The notes under the pieces: generated by a model | What the model was told of the DNA's origin: nothing | Seen by the model: the letters and a program-made list of their open reading frames with translations, nothing else | Databases searched by the model: none | Made by a program: the position numbers and the translations under genes | In this document: in pieces, positions 1,383-50,018 of the stretch | Numbering within the stretch: the first letter of the stretch is position 1 | Layout: every line of letters begins with the position of its first letter | From: Patescibacteria group bacterium | Lineage (GTDB): Bacteria > Patescibacteriota > Patescibacteriia > UBA10025 > JAHIVO01 | Reading direction: 5' to 3' | DNA length: 64,000 bases | Assembly: GCA_041650915.1 (NCBI GenBank) | Contig: JBAZKE010000001.1 | Span: 187,284 to 251,283, forward strand

Positions 1383-1458
1383 GGTACCAGGGGTGGGATT
1401 CGAACCCACGACCTCGGGCTTATGAGTCCCACGCTCTAACCAACTGAGCTACCCTGGC
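1383..1458 (-). tRNA. tRNA with CAT anticodon (elongator Met or Ile2/lysidine)
   Basis: Reverse complement reads gccagggtagctcagttggttagagcg...ctCATaa...ggttcgaatcc...ccctggtaCCA. D and T loops are canonical and CCA is encoded. Confidence 0.8.
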
Positions 1459-1605
1459 TCGTCGCAATGGTAATGCAAATTACGTTTCCGATAACATCGA
1501 AAATTCCACTCTGCGCGCATTACTCCTTTCCTTGCCCCGCTAGTGGGCGGTGCGCGGTAGAATTTTATTGGTTTCGCCGTTGTCTGCTTTAGGCAAACGT
1601 CGGCT

Positions 1606-1680
1606 TGGTTGCCGGGGGGGGATTCGAACCCCCGACCTCGGGATTATGAGCCCCGCGAGCTGCCACTGCTCTACCCGGCG
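1606..1680 (-). tRNA. Initiator tRNA-fMet (CAT)
   Basis: Reverse complement reads cgccgggtagagcagtggcagctcgcggggctCATaatcccgaggtcgggggttcgaatcccccccggcaaCCA. It has a C1:A72 mismatch, G-C-rich anticodon stem and GCAACCA 3' end, as in bacterial initiator tRNA (close to E. coli tRNAfMet). Confidence 0.85.
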
Positions 1681-1837
1681 TCGTTCAAATGGCACTCCAG
1701 ATTCCGTTTTCAGTGTCTATTGAAAACTTCACCCTCCGTGCCGTTTTTCCTTTTCCATACAAATGCCCAGAGCATTTGTATGGATGTTAAAGAGTCTATG
1801 CTATTATAAACGATTCTGGTGTTCTGCGCAAGTGCGT

Positions 1838-1924
1838 TGGTGCCGGAGGTGGGAGTTGAACCCACAAGAGGTTTCCCTCATGCGATTTTGAGTCGCACGC
1901 GTATGCCAGTTCCGCCACTCCGGC
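1838..1924 (-). tRNA. tRNA-Leu (CAA), type II with long variable arm
   Basis: Reverse complement reads gccggagtggcggaactggcatacgcgtgcgactCAAaatcgcatgagggaaacctcttgtgggttcaactcccacctccggcaCCA. It is 87 nt with a long variable arm. Confidence 0.85.
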
Positions 1925-2064: not shown

Positions 2065-2844
2065 ATGCCGCGAGTAATCTCTATCGTTAACCAAAAAGGG
2101 GGCGTCGGAAAGACAACGACAGCCATCAACCTTGCGTCGTACCTGGCCCACCACGGTAAGTTTGTCCTGCTGGTTGATCTCGATCCGCAGGGCAACGCAT
2201 CGTCGGGGATTGGAATCGACCGCCGGATGGTAAACGGCGGCGTGTATGAGTCCCTCATTTCCGGTACGTCGATCCACGAAGTCACGGTTCCGACTGACGT
2301 TGACGGGCTCAAGGCGGTTCCGTCATCGGCTGATCTCGCCGGTGCCCGGGTCGAGCTTGTCGGCGTTGAGCGCCGCGAGTACCGGCTGCACGACGCCATC
2401 CTTGAGGTGCGGAATGATTACGATTACATCATCATCGACAATCCGCCATCGCTGTGCCTTCTCACCATCAACGGGCTCGTTGCGGCAGATGAGGTGCTCG
2501 TTCCCGTGCAGACCGAGTATTACGCTCTCGAAGGCCTCGGGCAGCTGCTGAACACCATCAATCTCGTGCGGGAGAATTTGAAGCCGAATATCCGCATCGC
2601 TGGGGCAGTCATGACTATGTATGATGACCGCACGAAGCTGTCGCGCGATATTTTCGAAGAGCTATACCGGTATTTTCCCGATAATATTTACCGTACGGTC
2701 ATTCCGCGCAACATCAAGCTCGCTGAGGCGCCGAGCTTTGGCAAGAGCATCCTGCACTACGACCGGCGGTCGCCGGGCGGCAAGGCGTATAAGCGCCTCG
2801 CGCGTGAGATGATTGACCAAGAGAGTACGGTCAGGCCTGTTTAG
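2065..2844 (+). CDS. parA: Chromosome partitioning ATPase ParA/Soj
   Basis: Deviant Walker A 'KGGVGKTTTAINLA' and ParA-type motifs throughout. It sits directly upstream of parB. Confidence 0.9.
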   Translation: MPRVISIVNQKGGVGKTTTAINLASYLAHHGKFVLLVDLDPQGNASSGIGIDRRMVNGGVYESLISGTSIHEVTVPTDVDGLKAVPSSADLAGARVELVGVERREYRLHDAILEVRNDYDYIIIDNPPSLCLLTINGLVAADEVLVPVQTEYYALEGLGQLLNTINLVRENLKPNIRIAGAVMTMYDDRTKLSRDIFEELYRYFPDNIYRTVIPRNIKLAEAPSFGKSILHYDRRSPGGKAYKRLAREMIDQESTVRPV

Positions 2845-2873
2845 TTTTTTATTCGATGAGCTATCGAGAGGAA

Positions 2874-3739
2874 TGAGTATGAATGCAGAAAAGAGAACGC
2901 TGGGAAGAGGCCTAAGCTCTCTTATACCGGCGGCGGGAAGAACGGATATCGGAACTGCCGGCATTACGCACGATACAGTCAGTGAGGTTCCGGTCGACCA
3001 GATTAAACCGAATCCGCACCAGCCCCGCCAGCAGTTCGACAGCGCTTCGCTCGAAGACCTAATCAACTCAATAAAGGTGCACGGCATTCTCCAGCCGCTC
3101 ATCGTCCTTCCGGTCAGGGGCGGGTATGAGCTCATTGCAGGCGAACGCCGGTTACGGGCGGCAAAAGTTCTCGGCCTGAAGCGGGTACCGGTTGTCGTCA
3201 GGAGCGCAACTGACCAGCAGAAGCTCGAGTTTGCAATCGTCGAGAACGTTCAGCGCCAGAATTTGACCCCTATAGAACGTGCATACAGCTATCGGAGCCT
3301 GGTCGATGAATTCAATATGACGCAGGAGCAGGTTGCGAAAAAGGTCAGCCAGAGCCGGGCAGCGGTTGCGAATACGCTGCGGCTGCTCGCGCTGCCTGCG
3401 CACATGCAGCAATCGTTGCTCAATGGCCGCATTACGGAAGGGCACGCCAAAGCCCTCTTGAGCGTACCTGACGAGCAGAAGCGGGAGCGGCTCTTCAGGG
3501 AGATTACCCGTGAGCAGCTCACGGTGCGCGGTACCGAGAGCCGCGCACAGAGCGTTTCGGTCAGGCAGCACCGGAGGCAGGTGAAGGGCGATCCGAATTT
3601 AAAATCAAAAGAGGATCTCCTCCAGGAATCGCTCGGGACCAAGGTTGCCGTGCGGCGGTCTGGGAGAGGAGGCACGATTACCGTGTACTACTATTCCGAT
3701 GAAGAGCTTACCGGGATTATGAAGAAAATAATTGGGTAG
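2874..3739 (+). CDS. parB: Chromosome partitioning protein ParB/Spo0J
   Basis: ParB box 'LGRGLSSLIP', GERRLRAAK motif and HTH region. The six-frame ORF begins at 2813 and overlaps parA, so the start is more likely the ATG at 2874. Confidence 0.85.
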
Positions 3740-22002: not shown

Positions 22003-22076
22003 GGGCGAGTAGCTCAGTTGGTTAGAGCGTACGATTCACATTCGTAAGGTCATAGGTTCGACTCCTATCTCGCCCA
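22003..22076 (+). tRNA. tRNA-Val (CAC)
   Basis: gggcgagtagctcagttggttagagcgtacgattCACattcgtaaggtcataggttcgactcctatctcgccca. Canonical cloverleaf, CCA not encoded. Confidence 0.8.
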
Positions 22077-22110
22077 TGGAAAAATTGGCAGTAATTTCAT
22101 AAAAAACCGG

Positions 22111-22187
22111 GGGCGGTTAGCTCAGCTGGCTAGAGCGTCTGCTCGACACGCAGGAGGTCAGTGGTTCGAGTCCACTACCGCCCACCA
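22111..22187 (+). tRNA. tRNA-Val (GAC)
   Basis: gggcggttagctcagctggctagagcgtctgctcGACacgcaggaggtcagtggttcgagtccactaccgcccaCCA. The anticodon loop is tcGACac and CCA is encoded. Confidence 0.7.
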
Positions 22188-43987: not shown

Positions 43988-44464
43988 ATGAAATGCCCTG
44001 CTTGCCACCATCCAGATTCAAAGGTCACTGATTCGCGGCTCGTGAATGATGGCATGGCAGTTCGGCGCAGGAGAGAGTGTTTGGAGTGTAAGTTTCGCTT
44101 CTCAACCTATGAAGAGGTTGAGATTTTGGACCTTGCTGTCATCAAGAGTGATGGCCGGCGCGAACCATACGCTCGAGAAAAGCTCGAGAACGGCCTGAAG
44201 AAGGCATTTGAGAAGCGCCCAATCACCAAAGATGGCTTTAAGCAGCTTATCAGCACGATCGAGCGAGACATCCAGCTCGCCGCGAAAGAAGAGATAGAAA
44301 GCAGCACGCTCGGCGAGATCGTCATGAAGCACCTGAAGCGTAAGGACCAGGTCGCGTACATCCGTTTTGCATCGGTATACCGGTCGTTTGAGGACGTTGA
44401 GACGTTTCAGGAAGAGCTCATGAAGCTCAGCAAACCGAAAAAAACAAGGACCGTTAGAAAATAA
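43988..44464 (+). CDS. nrdR: Transcriptional repressor NrdR
   Basis: 158 aa. N-terminal zinc ribbon 'MKCPACHHPDSKVTDSR…CLECKFRFSTYE' plus an ATP-cone. Confidence 0.9.
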   Translation: MKCPACHHPDSKVTDSRLVNDGMAVRRRRECLECKFRFSTYEEVEILDLAVIKSDGRREPYAREKLENGLKKAFEKRPITKDGFKQLISTIERDIQLAAKEEIESSTLGEIVMKHLKRKDQVAYIRFASVYRSFEDVETFQEELMKLSKPKKTRTVRK

Positions 44465-46886: not shown

Positions 46887-47432
46887 ATGAAGTATAAAGT
46901 CATAGATCGGGGTTTGGTGCACGTTTACACTGGCGATGGCAAGGGAAAGACCACCGCGGCATTGGGATTGGCAGTGCGGGCGATCAGCTATAGGAAAAGG
47001 GTGCTTATCGTGCAGTTTATCAAGGGGCCGTGGCGTTCGGGTGAGCTGAATATTATACAGCGGCTGCGGCCGTACCTTACTATCCATGCGATGGGAGAGG
47101 GTTTCGTCAAGATACTCGGCGACCGCAAACCCCTGAGCGTGCATAGGAAAGCTGCACAGGGCGCGCTGCGTTTTGCGCAGCGGGCAATGCGGTCAGGCAG
47201 GTATGATATCGTTGTTCTCGACGAGGTCAATGTGGCGGTACGCGAGCGCCTGCTGGCGGTATCGCAGGTTGCTGAGCTGGTCAGAAAGAAGCCACGTGAA
47301 CTTGAGCTCGTATTGACCGGAAGAAATGCCGCTGCTACAATTGAAAGGCTCGCTGATTACGTTTCCCATATTCGTGAGATTCGGCACCCCTACCGGCGGG
47401 GCATTCTTGCCCGGCAGTCGATCGACTATTAA
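46887..47432 (+). CDS. cobO: Cob(I)yrinic acid a,c-diamide / cob(I)alamin adenosyltransferase (CobO/CobA/BtuR family)
   Basis: 181 aa. P-loop 'GDGKGKTTAALGLAVRA', 'VQFIKG' and 'VVLDE' motifs of the BtuR/CobA family. Confidence 0.85.
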   Translation: MKYKVIDRGLVHVYTGDGKGKTTAALGLAVRAISYRKRVLIVQFIKGPWRSGELNIIQRLRPYLTIHAMGEGFVKILGDRKPLSVHRKAAQGALRFAQRAMRSGRYDIVVLDEVNVAVRERLLAVSQVAELVRKKPRELELVLTGRNAAATIERLADYVSHIREIRHPYRRGILARQSIDY

Positions 47433-47439
47433 CAATTTA

Positions 47440-47633
47440 TTATAGCGAAGGGAAGTGTGGTGGAAAACCAACGCGATCCCGTCACTGTAATCGGGGAATT
47501 TGCTTCCGTATCATGCCACTGGCTTGCTCGCGTGTGAGCTAGCTGGGAAGGCAGGGAGCAGGTTGAGATCCGAGAGCCAGAATACCTTCGTGCACGGAAA
47601 GTCCCTTCGGTTGAGAGGGCGAAAGATTAAACG
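47440..47633 (+). promoter_or_regulatory. Cobalamin (B12) riboswitch aptamer
   Basis: GAAGGGAAgtgtGGTGGAAAACCaacgcgaTCCCGtCACTGTaa … atcatGCCACTGGcttg … GGGAAGGCagg … GAGCCAGAATACCttcg. These match the conserved AGGGAA / GGTGnAAAnCC / CCCGCCACTG / GGGAAGGC / B12-box elements in the canonical order. Confidence 0.6.
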
Positions 47634-47686
47634 AATCTTAGCTTTGAGACCACTGTGGGGAGGCTAAGATTTTTTAAAAAAAGGAA
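47634..47686 (+). terminator. Intrinsic terminator forming the riboswitch expression platform
   Basis: AATCTTAGCtttgagaccactgtggggagGCTAAGATTTTTTaaaaaaa immediately 5' of the AAGGAA RBS and the ATG at 47691. Confidence 0.55.
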
Positions 47687-47690
47687 TCCT

Positions 47691-48176
47691 ATGAAGCACC
47701 AAACACATGTCGGCTATACCGTCGCGGTTGTTGCGCTCGGCGTTGCTTTTATGACCGCGCTCGCCCTATTCGGGTACACGGTCGAGCAGGATGTAGCGGA
47801 GATAGCGCAGCAGCGCTATGATGCGGTTCAGGCGCCAGTTCCGTCAGGGCAGGTTGCCGGCGTCGCCGTTGAGCTCGCCACGGTTAGCATTGATCGCGGT
47901 AACGGCAATTCAATCAGCTATCAGATTGAGGTGTCCGGAGAGACGACAGTCCTCGATGCGCTCGAGCTTGCGGCTGATCAGTACGGTCTGGAGATCAAGA
48001 CGACGGAGTACGACTTCGGCACCATCGTCGATGGGATCGGGGGGATGCTCGGCGGATTTGAAAATCAGTATTGGATTTACTATATCGACGGCGTCATGGC
48101 GGTCAGCTCAGTCGATACCCAGATCGTGGAGCCCGGCGATATGGTCGAGTTTCGATTCGAAGAAAGCACGTTTTAG
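47691..48176 (+). CDS. DUF4430-domain protein (putative membrane-anchored corrinoid-binding protein)
   Basis: N-terminal TM anchor (VGYTVAVVALGVAFMTALALFGY) followed by a beta-rich domain ending '…GFENQYWIYYIDGVMAVSSVDTQIVEPGDMVEFRFE', characteristic of DUF4430. It is the first gene after the B12 riboswitch. Confidence 0.6.
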   Translation: MKHQTHVGYTVAVVALGVAFMTALALFGYTVEQDVAEIAQQRYDAVQAPVPSGQVAGVAVELATVSIDRGNGNSISYQIEVSGETTVLDALELAADQYGLEIKTTEYDFGTIVDGIGGMLGGFENQYWIYYIDGVMAVSSVDTQIVEPGDMVEFRFEESTF

Positions 48177-48204: not shown

Positions 48205-48738
48205 ATGAAAAAAAACATTTACTTTCTGCTCTTCCTGGCGCTCATCGCCGGGGCGAGCGTACTCATGCGGCTGCTGCCGCACCCCGCAAACTTCATTCCG
48301 ATCGGCGCCCTCGCACTCTTCAGCGGGACGCACATCCGGTCGCGGTGGGGAATTCTCCTGCCGGTCGCGGTAATGGCAGTGAGCGATATCATCATAGGCC
48401 TGCACAGCCTCTACCTTGTTACCTGGGGCAGCTTTCTCCTGATCGGCATGATCGGCTGGTGGGTACGGAACAAGAAGAGTGCGCTGCGCATCGTCAGCGG
48501 ATCCGTGACGGGCTCAGTTCTATTTTTTCTGTTGACGAATTTTGCCGTATGGCTCTTCACGCCGCTCTACGCAAAGACTACGGCAGGGCTTGTACAGTGC
48601 TACTATATGGCAATCCCGTTTTTTAGAAATACCATCCTTGGTGATCTGTTCTACGTCGCTGTTTTTTTCGGCCTGTACGCCATTATCAGAAAAACAGCGG
48701 CTGTATACCGCAAGCAATCCATGACGGCAATCCAGTAG
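48205..48738 (+). CDS. Small polytopic membrane protein, ECF-transporter S-component-like (candidate corrinoid-specific CbrT-type)
   Basis: 178 aa with ~5-6 TM helices, co-transcribed with the DUF4430 gene downstream of the B12 riboswitch. Family assignment is by context and architecture only. The longer six-frame ORF from 47818 overlaps the DUF4430 gene and is rejected. Confidence 0.45.
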   Translation: MKKNIYFLLFLALIAGASVLMRLLPHPANFIPIGALALFSGTHIRSRWGILLPVAVMAVSDIIIGLHSLYLVTWGSFLLIGMIGWWVRNKKSALRIVSGSVTGSVLFFLLTNFAVWLFTPLYAKTTAGLVQCYYMAIPFFRNTILGDLFYVAVFFGLYAIIRKTAAVYRKQSMTAIQ

Positions 48739-48808: not shown

Positions 48809-49726
48809 ATGGCACCGTATCAACAGTACAAGCGCTATCGGCAGCCTTCTAAAAGGCCTATGCTCCAGATAGGCAAGATTGTCGTCTTTATCGGGATTGC
48901 ATTCATACTCTATCTTATTGGAAGGTCAATTTTTGGGAGCAGCCCAACTGTGGAGAGCGTGCTTCCGAATACTAACGCCACTGTCAATGCCGACGCTGGG
49001 ACCGAGAGTAGCAATTCGAACGGCAATACGAATGCAGGTTCGAATACCAATGGCGAAACAAACGTCAATTCAAACGTGAATGTCGATGCCTCTGAAGCCG
49101 CATCTTTCGATCTCGGTTCGTGCACGGGCGTGATATCGAGCGGCAAGGCCGGCACGAAAGCCGTGAGCCTTACCTTCAACGTCGGGACAACCAAGGAGGG
49201 GGAGGTTCAGAAGGTGCTTGATGCGCTCAAGAACGCGAATGTCGAGGCTGACTTTTTTGCCCGCGGCGACGTAGCTGAGGAGAATCCCGATCTGATCAAA
49301 AAAATCGGCGATGCTGGTTTTCCCATCCATAATTTGAGCTACAGCCATCCGTACTTTACGGACCTTCCGACGAGCGGCATGGCGGAGCAGCTCGAGAATG
49401 CCGAGGCGGCGATTTCCCAGCGGACCGGCAAGACGACGAAACCGTTTTTCCGGCCGCCGTACGGCGATGCAGATGAGGACGTCGCTGCAGCCGCGCATGA
49501 AGCTGGCTACTGCACCGTAACGTGGAGCATTGATGCGATGGATTGGTCAACCGAATTCACCGCGGTACAGTCGAAAGAGCGGGTACTGTCGAATGTGAAG
49601 AACGGTTCGATCATACTTATGCAGGCGAGCAACTCCACGACCGCTGAAATCATTCAAGACGTCATTACGGAGCTCAAGAACGGCGGCTACGCCATCGTCA
49701 AACTTGAATCACTACTTGCACCGTAG
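48809..49726 (+). CDS. Polysaccharide deacetylase (CE4/NodB domain), membrane-anchored
   Basis: N-terminal TM helix and Asn-rich linker, then NodB motifs ('TFNVGT', 'HNLSYSHPYFTDL', 'FFRPPYGD', 'ILMQAS'). Confidence 0.8.
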   Translation: MAPYQQYKRYRQPSKRPMLQIGKIVVFIGIAFILYLIGRSIFGSSPTVESVLPNTNATVNADAGTESSNSNGNTNAGSNTNGETNVNSNVNVDASEAASFDLGSCTGVISSGKAGTKAVSLTFNVGTTKEGEVQKVLDALKNANVEADFFARGDVAEENPDLIKKIGDAGFPIHNLSYSHPYFTDLPTSGMAEQLENAEAAISQRTGKTTKPFFRPPYGDADEDVAAAAHEAGYCTVTWSIDAMDWSTEFTAVQSKERVLSNVKNGSIILMQASNSTTAEIIQDVITELKNGGYAIVKLESLLAP

Positions 49727-49942: not shown

Positions 49943-50018
49943 AATGGCGGACGACTTGACAGGTCGGGAAAAGCTGATTCATAATAGTAGTACTCTAATA
50001 CATTAGCTATTTTTTCAT

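Follow-up and report, generated by a model that had tools for sequence, protein, structure and literature searches.

A cobalamin riboswitch predicted to act as a transcriptional OFF switch between cobO and a probable B12 uptake gene pair in a Patescibacteria genome

We analysed a 64,000-nt stretch of contig JBAZKE010000001.1 (assembly GCA_041650915.1) from a Patescibacteria group bacterium, hereafter called the window, which carries a cobalamin riboswitch directly after the adenosyltransferase gene cobO. We read this RNA, whose ligand is most likely adenosylcobalamin (AdoCbl), as a transcriptional OFF switch on the downstream DUF4430-DUF6580 gene pair, and we put the probability of that reading at roughly 0.8. 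The aptamer is a bona fide member of the Rfam family RF00174, and a P13 hairpin and a terminator hairpin followed by a T-run are conserved behind it with compensatory changes. An antiterminator and a kissing loop, both predicted, would join these parts into a switch of a type that has been dissected experimentally in another bacterium.

Results

The aptamer. A cmscan search of the whole window, on both strands, against Rfam 15 gave a single riboswitch match, to RF00174 (Cobalamin, clan CL00101) at 47405-47607 on the + strand, with 63.6 bits and an E-value of 2.2e-13. The score is twice the gathering score of 31.5 bits, and model positions 1-189 are matched, that is, the full length of the model. 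The first ~40 nt of the match, which occupy the P1/P2 columns, lie within the cobO coding sequence; because these columns are marked as non-pairs or mispaired, 47405 is not the true start of the aptamer, which begins with P1 at 47446 (Table 1). L5 (TCCCG) and the B12 box GAGCCAGAATACC fit the cobalamin-riboswitch consensus, in which L5 is UCCCG (PMC10327014). The region also folds better than shuffled sequences (z -2.8), with 1 of 200 shuffles reaching an equally good energy.

Covariation supports the same architecture. An RNAalifold consensus of seven diverse cobalamin aptamers recovers P1/P3, P4, P5 and P6 with its extension, and 13 of its 27 pairs have changed on both sides and are still paired. 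Within the lineage of the window, 8 of 32 pairs are kept through two-sided changes, including four of the six P1 pairs, and P1 reads CGAAGG/CCUUCG in the window, AGAAAG/CUUUCU in the related loci L090 and L091, AAAGAG/CUCUUU in L088 and AGGAUA/UAUCUU in L083. The compensatory pairs are located in P1, P4 and P6 with its extension, and the aptamer core is kept, with compensatory changes, down to 39-43% DUF4430 protein identity. A preliminary description of this DNA, made from its letters, had listed the aptamer motifs in canonical order and named covariance-model scoring and a covariation-supported fold as checks on the assignment; a script located all the motifs inside 47440-47690 in the order given, and the RF00174 score and the compensated pairs agree with the assignment on both counts.

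The expression platform. In an alignment of nine related sequences, 92.5% of the cells that make up P13 and the terminator are paired and eight pairs have changed on both sides. None of 500 column shuffles reaches any of the five measures used, and sliding the partners lowers pairing to 34-70%. The five stem pairs of P13 are intact in every cell (100%), G/A and C/U exchanges included, while seven of the 12 terminator stem pairs are kept through two-sided changes and a run of at least five T stands directly 3' of the hairpin in 9/9 sequences. Seven of the nine aligned platforms share an identical block, GTCCCTTCGGT (47601-11), in the stretch from P1 to the terminator, and none of the nine deviates from its core CTTCGGT. 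The preliminary description had seen here a 9-bp hairpin with a T-run that ends 5 nt before the ribosome-binding site (RBS); hairpin, T-run and spacing are as described, but the stem has 13 bp. The bare terminator platform that it proposed is likewise incomplete: the terminator is present, as part of what we predict to be a P13/antiterminator/terminator switch with an L5-L13 kissing loop.

As a terminator, the element combines a stable hairpin and a U-run with an AU-rich stem and a long loop, in place of the GC-rich stem and short loop of the typical case. The consensus terminator scan did not report it (47633-75) because its loop is 14 nt. This atypical appearance would suit a different arrangement, in which a real aptamer exerts translational or dual control through access to the DUF4430 RBS, as in Escherichia coli btuB and env8, and the hairpin and T-run are incidental. 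Many cobalamin riboswitches are indeed translational (PMC10327014), and the RBS here is only 5 nt past the T-run. Nevertheless, the RBS and the ATG lie outside all conserved helices, the T-run follows the hairpin in all nine sequences with the stem changes compensated, and an anti-RBS sequence was not found. We therefore regard translational control as quite improbable and retain transcriptional control by the terminator.

The antiterminator and the kissing loop. Per-sequence folding predicts that in the ligand-free state the P13 loop and 3' side pair with the 5' arm and loop of the terminator, in an antiterminator that excludes the terminator fold. For 8/8 riboswitch sequences, the predictions include an alternative fold that overlaps with the terminator 5' arm and beats most shuffles; in five sequences, shuffling the upstream part 300 times reached its energy 5, 25, 0, 9 and 0 times. 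Constrained folds place the two states near each other in energy, with terminator/antiterminator values (kcal/mol) of -22.6/-19.2 in the window, -22.9/-23.1 in L085, -15.7/-15.2 in L083, -16.5/-23.8 in L086 and -18.1/-14.1 in L090. The inner eight antiterminator pairs are 87.5% paired, compared with 57-62% when slid by one column. The antiterminator is thus predicted from per-sequence folding and conserved pairing potential, not from covariation.

The CCG of L5 (47479-81) is complementary to the CGG of the P13 loop (47608-10), and both are invariant in all eight riboswitch sequences; L5 is UCCCG, or UUCCG in L082, and CCG:CGG is always kept. From this match we infer an L5-L13 kissing loop. A different partner for L5, the GGGGA of the terminator loop, fits the window, L082 and L086 but was rejected, since L083 and L090/L091 have no G-run there; the terminator-loop G-run is better explained as the antiterminator partner of UCCC(U). 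An alternative register of P13 (CTTCG with CGAAAG, placing GGG in the loop) is weaker in L083 and is unneeded given the published CCG:CGG match.

A further complementarity was observed between the aptamer and the platform. CGAAGGGA (47446-53), which comprises the 5' strand of P1 and the conserved junction Gs, can pair over 8 bp with TCCCTTCG (47602-09) in the invariant platform block. The pairing is perfect in L082 as well and might break up the aptamer when no ligand is bound. We did not adopt it as an alternative P1, as only ~5 bp are possible in L083 and L086.

The proposed mechanism. The predicted polarity is OFF because P13 and the terminator do not overlap. The CGG of the P13 loop, which is paired in the predicted antiterminator, would be available either to that fold or to L5, but not to both. 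With corrinoid bound, L5 would kiss the P13 loop and keep P13 closed, withholding the P13 loop and 3' side from the antiterminator; the terminator would then form, and transcription would end 16 nt before the DUF4430 start codon. When ligand is lacking, the antiterminator would form first during transcription and sequester the terminator 5' arm, and RNA polymerase would read through into the uptake genes. NrdJ requires AdoCbl, and CobO makes AdoCbl from imported corrinoid. With sufficient AdoCbl, import would be shut off and nrdJ-cobO expression would be unaffected. Analogy and structure prediction support the OFF switch between cobO and uptake genes that had been suggested for this position.

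The transcription unit. Thirteen nucleotides separate the cobO stop codon from P1 in the window, with no terminator between them; across the window, L082, L086, L088, L090 and L091, P1 begins 13-30 nt past the cobO stop, again with no intervening hairpin. Co-transcription of cobO and DUF4430 is the simplest reading because these two genes lie 14-28 nt apart in the riboswitch-less relatives, and the switch is probably operon-internal in the window genome, acting as a conditional terminator. The only sigma-70-like site on the + strand, TTGACC-17-TACAAT at 47313-41 inside cobO, is unconvincing, because TTGACC belongs to the codons for the conserved VLTGR motif. In L083 (~150-190) and L089 (~2845-2880), though not in the window, cobO is immediately followed by a long GC-rich hairpin with an A-run on one side and a T-run on the other. 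This hairpin resembles a bidirectional terminator and suggests a separate promoter or a different transcription-unit structure at those two loci.

The ligand. Cbl-I riboswitches are defined by a P2 module together with a large P6 extension, and they bind AdoCbl (PMC7367189). In the window, the P6 extension of ~84 nt (47490-47573) aligns to the RF00174 extension columns, with GCCACUG / GGGAAGGC, while the loop-stem-loop module between P1 and P3 is missing. The P2 arm can be called absent because the covariation-supported P1 directly adjoins the GGAAG junction, as it does in all lineage members. Its absence explains the lower score of the window aptamer (63.6 bits, versus 105-112 bits for L084, L010 and L015); L084, from a different, GC-rich lineage, visibly has extra 5' sequence and a P2. 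Judged by its sequence, the RNA is Cbl-I-like in its P6 extension and not a textbook Cbl-I. AdoCbl is our best guess and most likely the ligand, on account of the P6 extension, and it fits the NrdJ/CobO context.

The switch might instead respond to corrinoids different from AdoCbl, whether methyl-, hydroxo- or a wide range of cobamides, seeing that its peripheral elements depart from the textbook Cbl-I set, with no P2, no J1/3 and a large P6 extension throughout the lineage. Small peripheral changes can shift selectivity, and the hybrid Bacillus subtilis yvrC riboswitch is promiscuous (PMC7367189). In Cbl-I structures, however, the adenosyl pocket is built by the P7-P11 extension and not by P2 (PMC7367189), and that extension is present here, aligned to the RF00174 model. 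The genomic context, with NrdJ and CobO, is also centred on AdoCbl. A non-AdoCbl ligand is accordingly unlikely in our view. The preliminary description held that the corrinoid form could not be read from the sequence, which is too pessimistic insofar as the P6 extension points to AdoCbl; the missing P2 arm and the reported exceptions still keep the assignment of AdoCbl a qualified one.

Syntenic relatives. Relatives were gathered via protein look-ups and one metagenome DNA-pattern scan. The DUF6580 homologues nearest to the window protein are from Patescibacteria, and the gene order nrdR-nrdJ-cobO-[gap]-DUF4430-DUF6580-deacetylase is kept in all syntenic relatives, with three classes of gap. 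In the first class, the gap is ~250-290 nt and contains RF00174, at 79.8 bits in L082, 85.6 in L086, 61.8 in L088 and 69.3 in L090; L091 and L092 belong here according to nhmmer, as do the fragments L083 (55.8 bits, downstream of cobO) and L085 (43.6 bits, 5'-truncated). The second class has gaps of 14-28 nt and no RNA element (L001 3426-3446, L093 2955-2970, L094 2938-2967). The third consists of L089, where a gap of 165 nt (2839-3003) has no aptamer (Rfam, E<=1) and a platform that is recognisably kept, with what is left of the B12 box (CCAGCACCTTC), the P13-like hairpin GUCUUCGGUC and a second hairpin followed by a T-run. The switch is thus polymorphic, gained or lost, within the nrdJ-cobO-DUF4430-DUF6580 cluster. 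L089 looks like a riboswitch with a deleted aptamer, and its antiterminator-like fold is clearly favoured in the models (-21.3 versus -15.1 kcal/mol), which is how a leader locked in the ON state should behave.

This distribution bears on whether the window element is itself a decaying relic, its hairpin and T-run merely ending the nrdJ-cobO transcript and DUF4430-DUF6580 being expressed from an unregulated promoter of their own. The lineage does tolerate loss, as L089, with its aptamer lost and platform kept, and the three switch-less syntenic relatives indicate. Against a relic stand the conservation of the aptamer core, with compensatory changes, over the range of DUF4430 identity given above, an RF00174 score far above the gathering score, and the 16 nt between the T-run and the ATG, which leave no room for a promoter. 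We consider a relic highly improbable and continue to read the window element as a functional switch.

Two features of the relatives lie outside this question. An extra hairpin (e.g. UCCUGAC-UUUU-GUCAGGA) is inserted in the L4 loop (GGUG...CC) of L088 (~2640-2665), L090/L091 (~2762-2790) and L092. The L4 loop normally forms a T-loop that docks into P6, and the riboswitches with the extra hairpin still score 62-69 bits. In addition, a small gene of family PF27854 (Heavy_Cys_CGP) occurs between a 70-aa open reading frame (ORF) and an HtrA-like protease in L088 (5521-5862), L089 (5061-5507), L090, L091 and L094; the equivalent interval of the window (49943-50018) showed no gene of this type. L087, which came from the metagenome pattern scan, proved to be a chance match in coding sequence and was discarded.

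Points that weigh against the proposed switch. Several observations run counter to a transcriptional OFF switch responsive to AdoCbl. We infer the ligand, the polarity and the mechanism alike, and the absence of the Cbl-I-defining P2 arm makes selectivity for AdoCbl less certain. The terminator of the window is 3.4 kcal/mol more stable than the antiterminator, so that regulation must be kinetic. The full antiterminator is 69.5% paired, and its covariation score was reached by 138 of 500 shuffles in a column-wise test, which is not significant; this test is conservative because the MAFFT alignment displaces L090 and L091 by a single column and the register of the outer antiterminator helices varies among sequences. 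In the inner helices, only one pair has changed on both sides (A-U in four sequences, G-C in three). The predicted kissing loop consists of only three Watson-Crick pairs, without variation and hence without covariation. The terminator is atypical and was missed by the consensus scan, as described above, and to our knowledge intrinsic termination in bacteria of the Candidate Phyla Radiation (CPR) has not been studied. No usable -35/-10 pair lies between the cobO stop and P1, and no convincing promoter was seen in the window. Finally, the close relatives L001, L093 and L094 have no switch at all.

Flanking genes and their link to B12. The gene upstream of the switch, cobO, closes an nrdR-nrdJ-cobO block and matches TIGR00708 (cobA) with 172.3 bits against a cut-off of 167.75; with the PF02572 match of cobO and the downstream PF14478 match, the latter above its cut-off (Table 1), cobO and DUF4430 flank the switch as first described. 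A mechanical ORF list starts DUF4430 at GTG 47655 (ORF 47655-48176), inside the terminator loop. The ATG at 47691, preceded by the RBS AAGGA, is the credible true start, and the public gene call (161 aa) agrees with it.

The AlphaFold2 (AF2) model of the DUF4430 protein (predicted local distance difference test, pLDDT, 85.5, and >93 for residues ~60-160) has an N-terminal membrane helix and a globular domain. The top 19 Foldseek matches in the PDB are to intrinsic factor, transcobalamin, haptocorrin and a small bacterial protein (3u7z), at E-values of 1.5e-6 to 1.4e-5; among them is the beta domain of transcobalamin on its own, bound to cyanocobalamin (5np4, TM-score 0.76). DUF4430 has been described as the C-terminal domain of TCN proteins (PMC4350170). 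The modelled fold suggests that the DUF4430 protein is a probable surface B12 binder, membrane-anchored and resembling the transcobalamin beta domain. The idea that Bacteroides BtuH contains DUF4430 was dropped, as the BtuH paper contains no DUF, Pfam or transcobalamin terms.

The DUF6580 protein is modelled by AF2 as a six-helix bundle (pLDDT 93.9), with the best Foldseek matches in the PDB to RibU, PanT, ThiT and FolT (TM-score 0.55-0.61, probability 0.98-1.0, E-values only 0.03-0.6). The family profile has a sole PDB match, 6fnp_A, at a marginal E-value of 0.0028 and covering only transmembrane helices 1-3; from its length and label, this 182-residue membrane chain appears to be CbrT, 6FNP being the B12-specific energy-coupling factor (ECF) transporter ECF-CbrT (PMC5997447). 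Single-sequence phmmer searches of DUF4430 and DUF6580 against the PDB returned nothing meaningful. On the strength of the model, DUF6580 is probably a B12 transporter subunit with an ECF S-component fold, distantly related to CbrT. The two predicted folds, beta-domain-like and CbrT-like, support the designation of the downstream genes as uptake genes. Neither an ABC-type ATPase signature motif nor ECF module genes were found in the 64-kb window.

An nhmmer profile located a cobalamin-riboswitch core within 4 kb of ~25 of 80 DUF6580 loci (L001-L080; Acidobacteriota, Bacteroidota and others), and most Patescibacteria DUF6580 loci in this set have no such core nearby. DUF6580 accordingly appears to be a B12-linked family; it is not mentioned in the literature library that we searched. 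Compact elements resembling the cobalamin core also occur just upstream of the ORF that precedes DUF6580 in L005 (3231-3371, + strand) and L006 (3319-3455, + strand). Their scores of 27.1 and 25.7 bits (E 0.0016 and 0.004) fall short of the Rfam gathering score, and neither element has the P6 extension or the B12 box. The two sequences share ~90% identity, with a few differences that compensate each other, and could represent either a short variant that the curated threshold misses or a relic. Elsewhere in the window, the only other Rfam matches are five tRNA genes in two clusters, at 1385-1924 (- strand) and 22003-22184 (+ strand).

Table 1. Coordinates of the riboswitch, its parts and the neighbouring genes in the window
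Feature	Position	Strand	Details
NrdR	43988-44464		
NrdJ, AdoCbl-dependent ribonucleotide reductase	44494-46785		matches AdoCbl-dependent ribonucleotide reductase equivalogs
cobA/cobO, ATP:corrinoid adenosyltransferase (makes AdoCbl)	46887-47432	+	PF02572 CobA_CobO_BtuR, 197 bits; stop TAA 47430-32
Cobalamin riboswitch aptamer (functional)	47446-47590	+	RF00174, motif coordinates, compensatory pairs
P1/P3 helix	47446-51 with 47585-90	+	CGAAGG with CCTTCG
Junction AGGGAA	47449-54	+	located by script
P4/L4 GGTGGAAAACC	47459-69	+	located by script
P5/L5 GA[TCCCG]TC (GATCCCGTC)	47475-83	+	L5 TCCCG itself 47477-81
TCCCGtCACTG	47477-87	+	located by script
P6 with long extension	~47484-47573	+	contains GCCACTGG 47515-22 and GGGAAGGC 47545-52
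B12 box GAGCCAGAATACC	47574-86	+	located by script
Predicted antiterminator (ligand-free fold)	47602-47661	+	per-sequence folding
Predicted antiterminator helices	47602-06/47657-61; 47608-11/47652-55; 47616-20/47641-45; 47623-28/47634-39	+	last helix AAGATT/AATCTT
P13-like hairpin	47603-47619	+	CCCTT 47603-07 pairs with GAGGG 47615-19
P13 loop CGGTTGA	47608-14	+	7 nt; invariant CGG 47608-10
Intrinsic terminator	47633-47675	+	13 bp, -15.1 kcal/mol, then T6
Terminator parts	5' arm 47633-45; loop 47646-59; 3' arm 47660-72; T-run 47670-75	+	14-nt loop
9-bp stem of the preliminary description, AATCTTAGC / GCTAAGATT	47634-42 / 47663-71	+	located by script
RBS AAGGA	47681-85	+	5 nt after T-run; outside every conserved hairpin
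DUF4430 start ATG	47691-93	+	outside every conserved hairpin
DUF4430 protein	47691-48176	+	PF14478, 39.1 bits versus cut-off 23.8
DUF6580 membrane protein	48205-48738	+	PF20221, 172 bits
Polysaccharide deacetylase	48809-49726		

Discussion

The riboswitch is conceptually nothing new: it belongs to a very well-known class, its type of platform has already been dissected experimentally, and few riboswitch arrangements are as common as a cobalamin riboswitch before B12 uptake genes. Annotation pipelines based on Rfam would detect it. What adds modest interest is that the host is a CPR bacterium, that the P2 arm is missing, that the switch is functionally linked to DUF4430 and DUF6580, and that syntenic relatives form a series of presence, remnant and absence, a tidy small case of riboswitch turnover. 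On cobalamin riboswitches in Patescibacteria or CPR bacteria, the literature library that we searched contained nothing relevant.

The element is also of value as a functional signpost: it connects B12 acquisition with DUF4430 and DUF6580, two domains of unknown function found widely in Patescibacteria and in other phyla, and structure prediction supports this connection independently. CPR bacteria rely on scavenged cofactors, and the sole visible consumer of B12 here is an AdoCbl-dependent ribonucleotide reductase, so that the cluster is a plausible minimal B12 salvage module. One may go further and combine these observations. The peripheral elements would then form a set outside the usual Cbl-I/Cbl-II scheme, with a full P6 extension but neither P2 nor J1/3, and with an additional L4 hairpin in some members; an intra-operon conditional terminator would uncouple from nrdJ-cobO an uncharacterised two-part B12 importer, consisting of a membrane-anchored transcobalamin-beta-like binder and a CbrT-like DUF6580 S-component. 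If this were true, the series of present, aptamer-deleted (L089) and absent (L001, L093, L094) switches would record the gain or loss of a riboswitch in reduced genomes. We offer this combination tentatively, as a possibility that is more doubtful than not.

Several known systems resemble parts of the proposed one. With Cbl-I members of RF00174, such as the AdoCbl riboswitch of T. tengcongensis (PDB 4GMA), the window RNA shares the four-way junction P3-P6, the L4 GGUG...CC loop, L5 UCCCG, the long P6 extension with GCCACUG / GGGAAGGC, and the B12 box; it differs in having no P2 loop-stem-loop, P1 being continuous with P3, and in coming from a CPR bacterium. Among the downstream proteins, the modelled DUF6580 shares the S-component fold with ECF-CbrT of L. 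delbrueckii (6FNP), to which its profile matches, although the sequence similarity is marginal and ECF-CbrT has no membrane-anchored beta-domain partner. The modelled DUF4430 domain superposes on the beta domain of transcobalamin and intrinsic factor. In the E. coli btuB and env8 switches, as is proposed here, a B12 uptake gene is repressed and an L5-L13 kissing loop couples binding to expression; those switches act on the RBS and hence on translation, whereas the window RNA is predicted to use a terminator. Moreover, env8 is a Cbl-IIa RNA that rejects AdoCbl, in contrast to the window aptamer with its Cbl-I P6 extension.

The closest parallel is the metE riboswitch of Priestia megaterium, a repressing, transcriptional switch dissected by mutagenesis by Kennedy et al. 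(PMC10327014). There, L5 is UCCCG and the functional kissing pairs join the CCG of L5 to the CGG of L13; the kissing loop stabilises P13, and in the ligand-free state the P13 3' side and the terminator 5' side form the antiterminator (PMC10327014). The window RNA has the same L5, the same CCG:CGG match and a P13 separate from the terminator, with the same parts in the same order, and it is predicted to share the antiterminator built from the P13 3' side and the terminator 5' arm as well as the OFF polarity. The A. halodurans cobT switch differs from both in that it is activating and P13 itself is the antiterminator (PMC10327014). In the window, complementarity in L13 is limited to CGG(U) instead of five bases; the L13 CGG and the terminator loop also take part in the predicted antiterminator; and the switch, whose mechanism is here a prediction only, would regulate uptake genes in place of metE.

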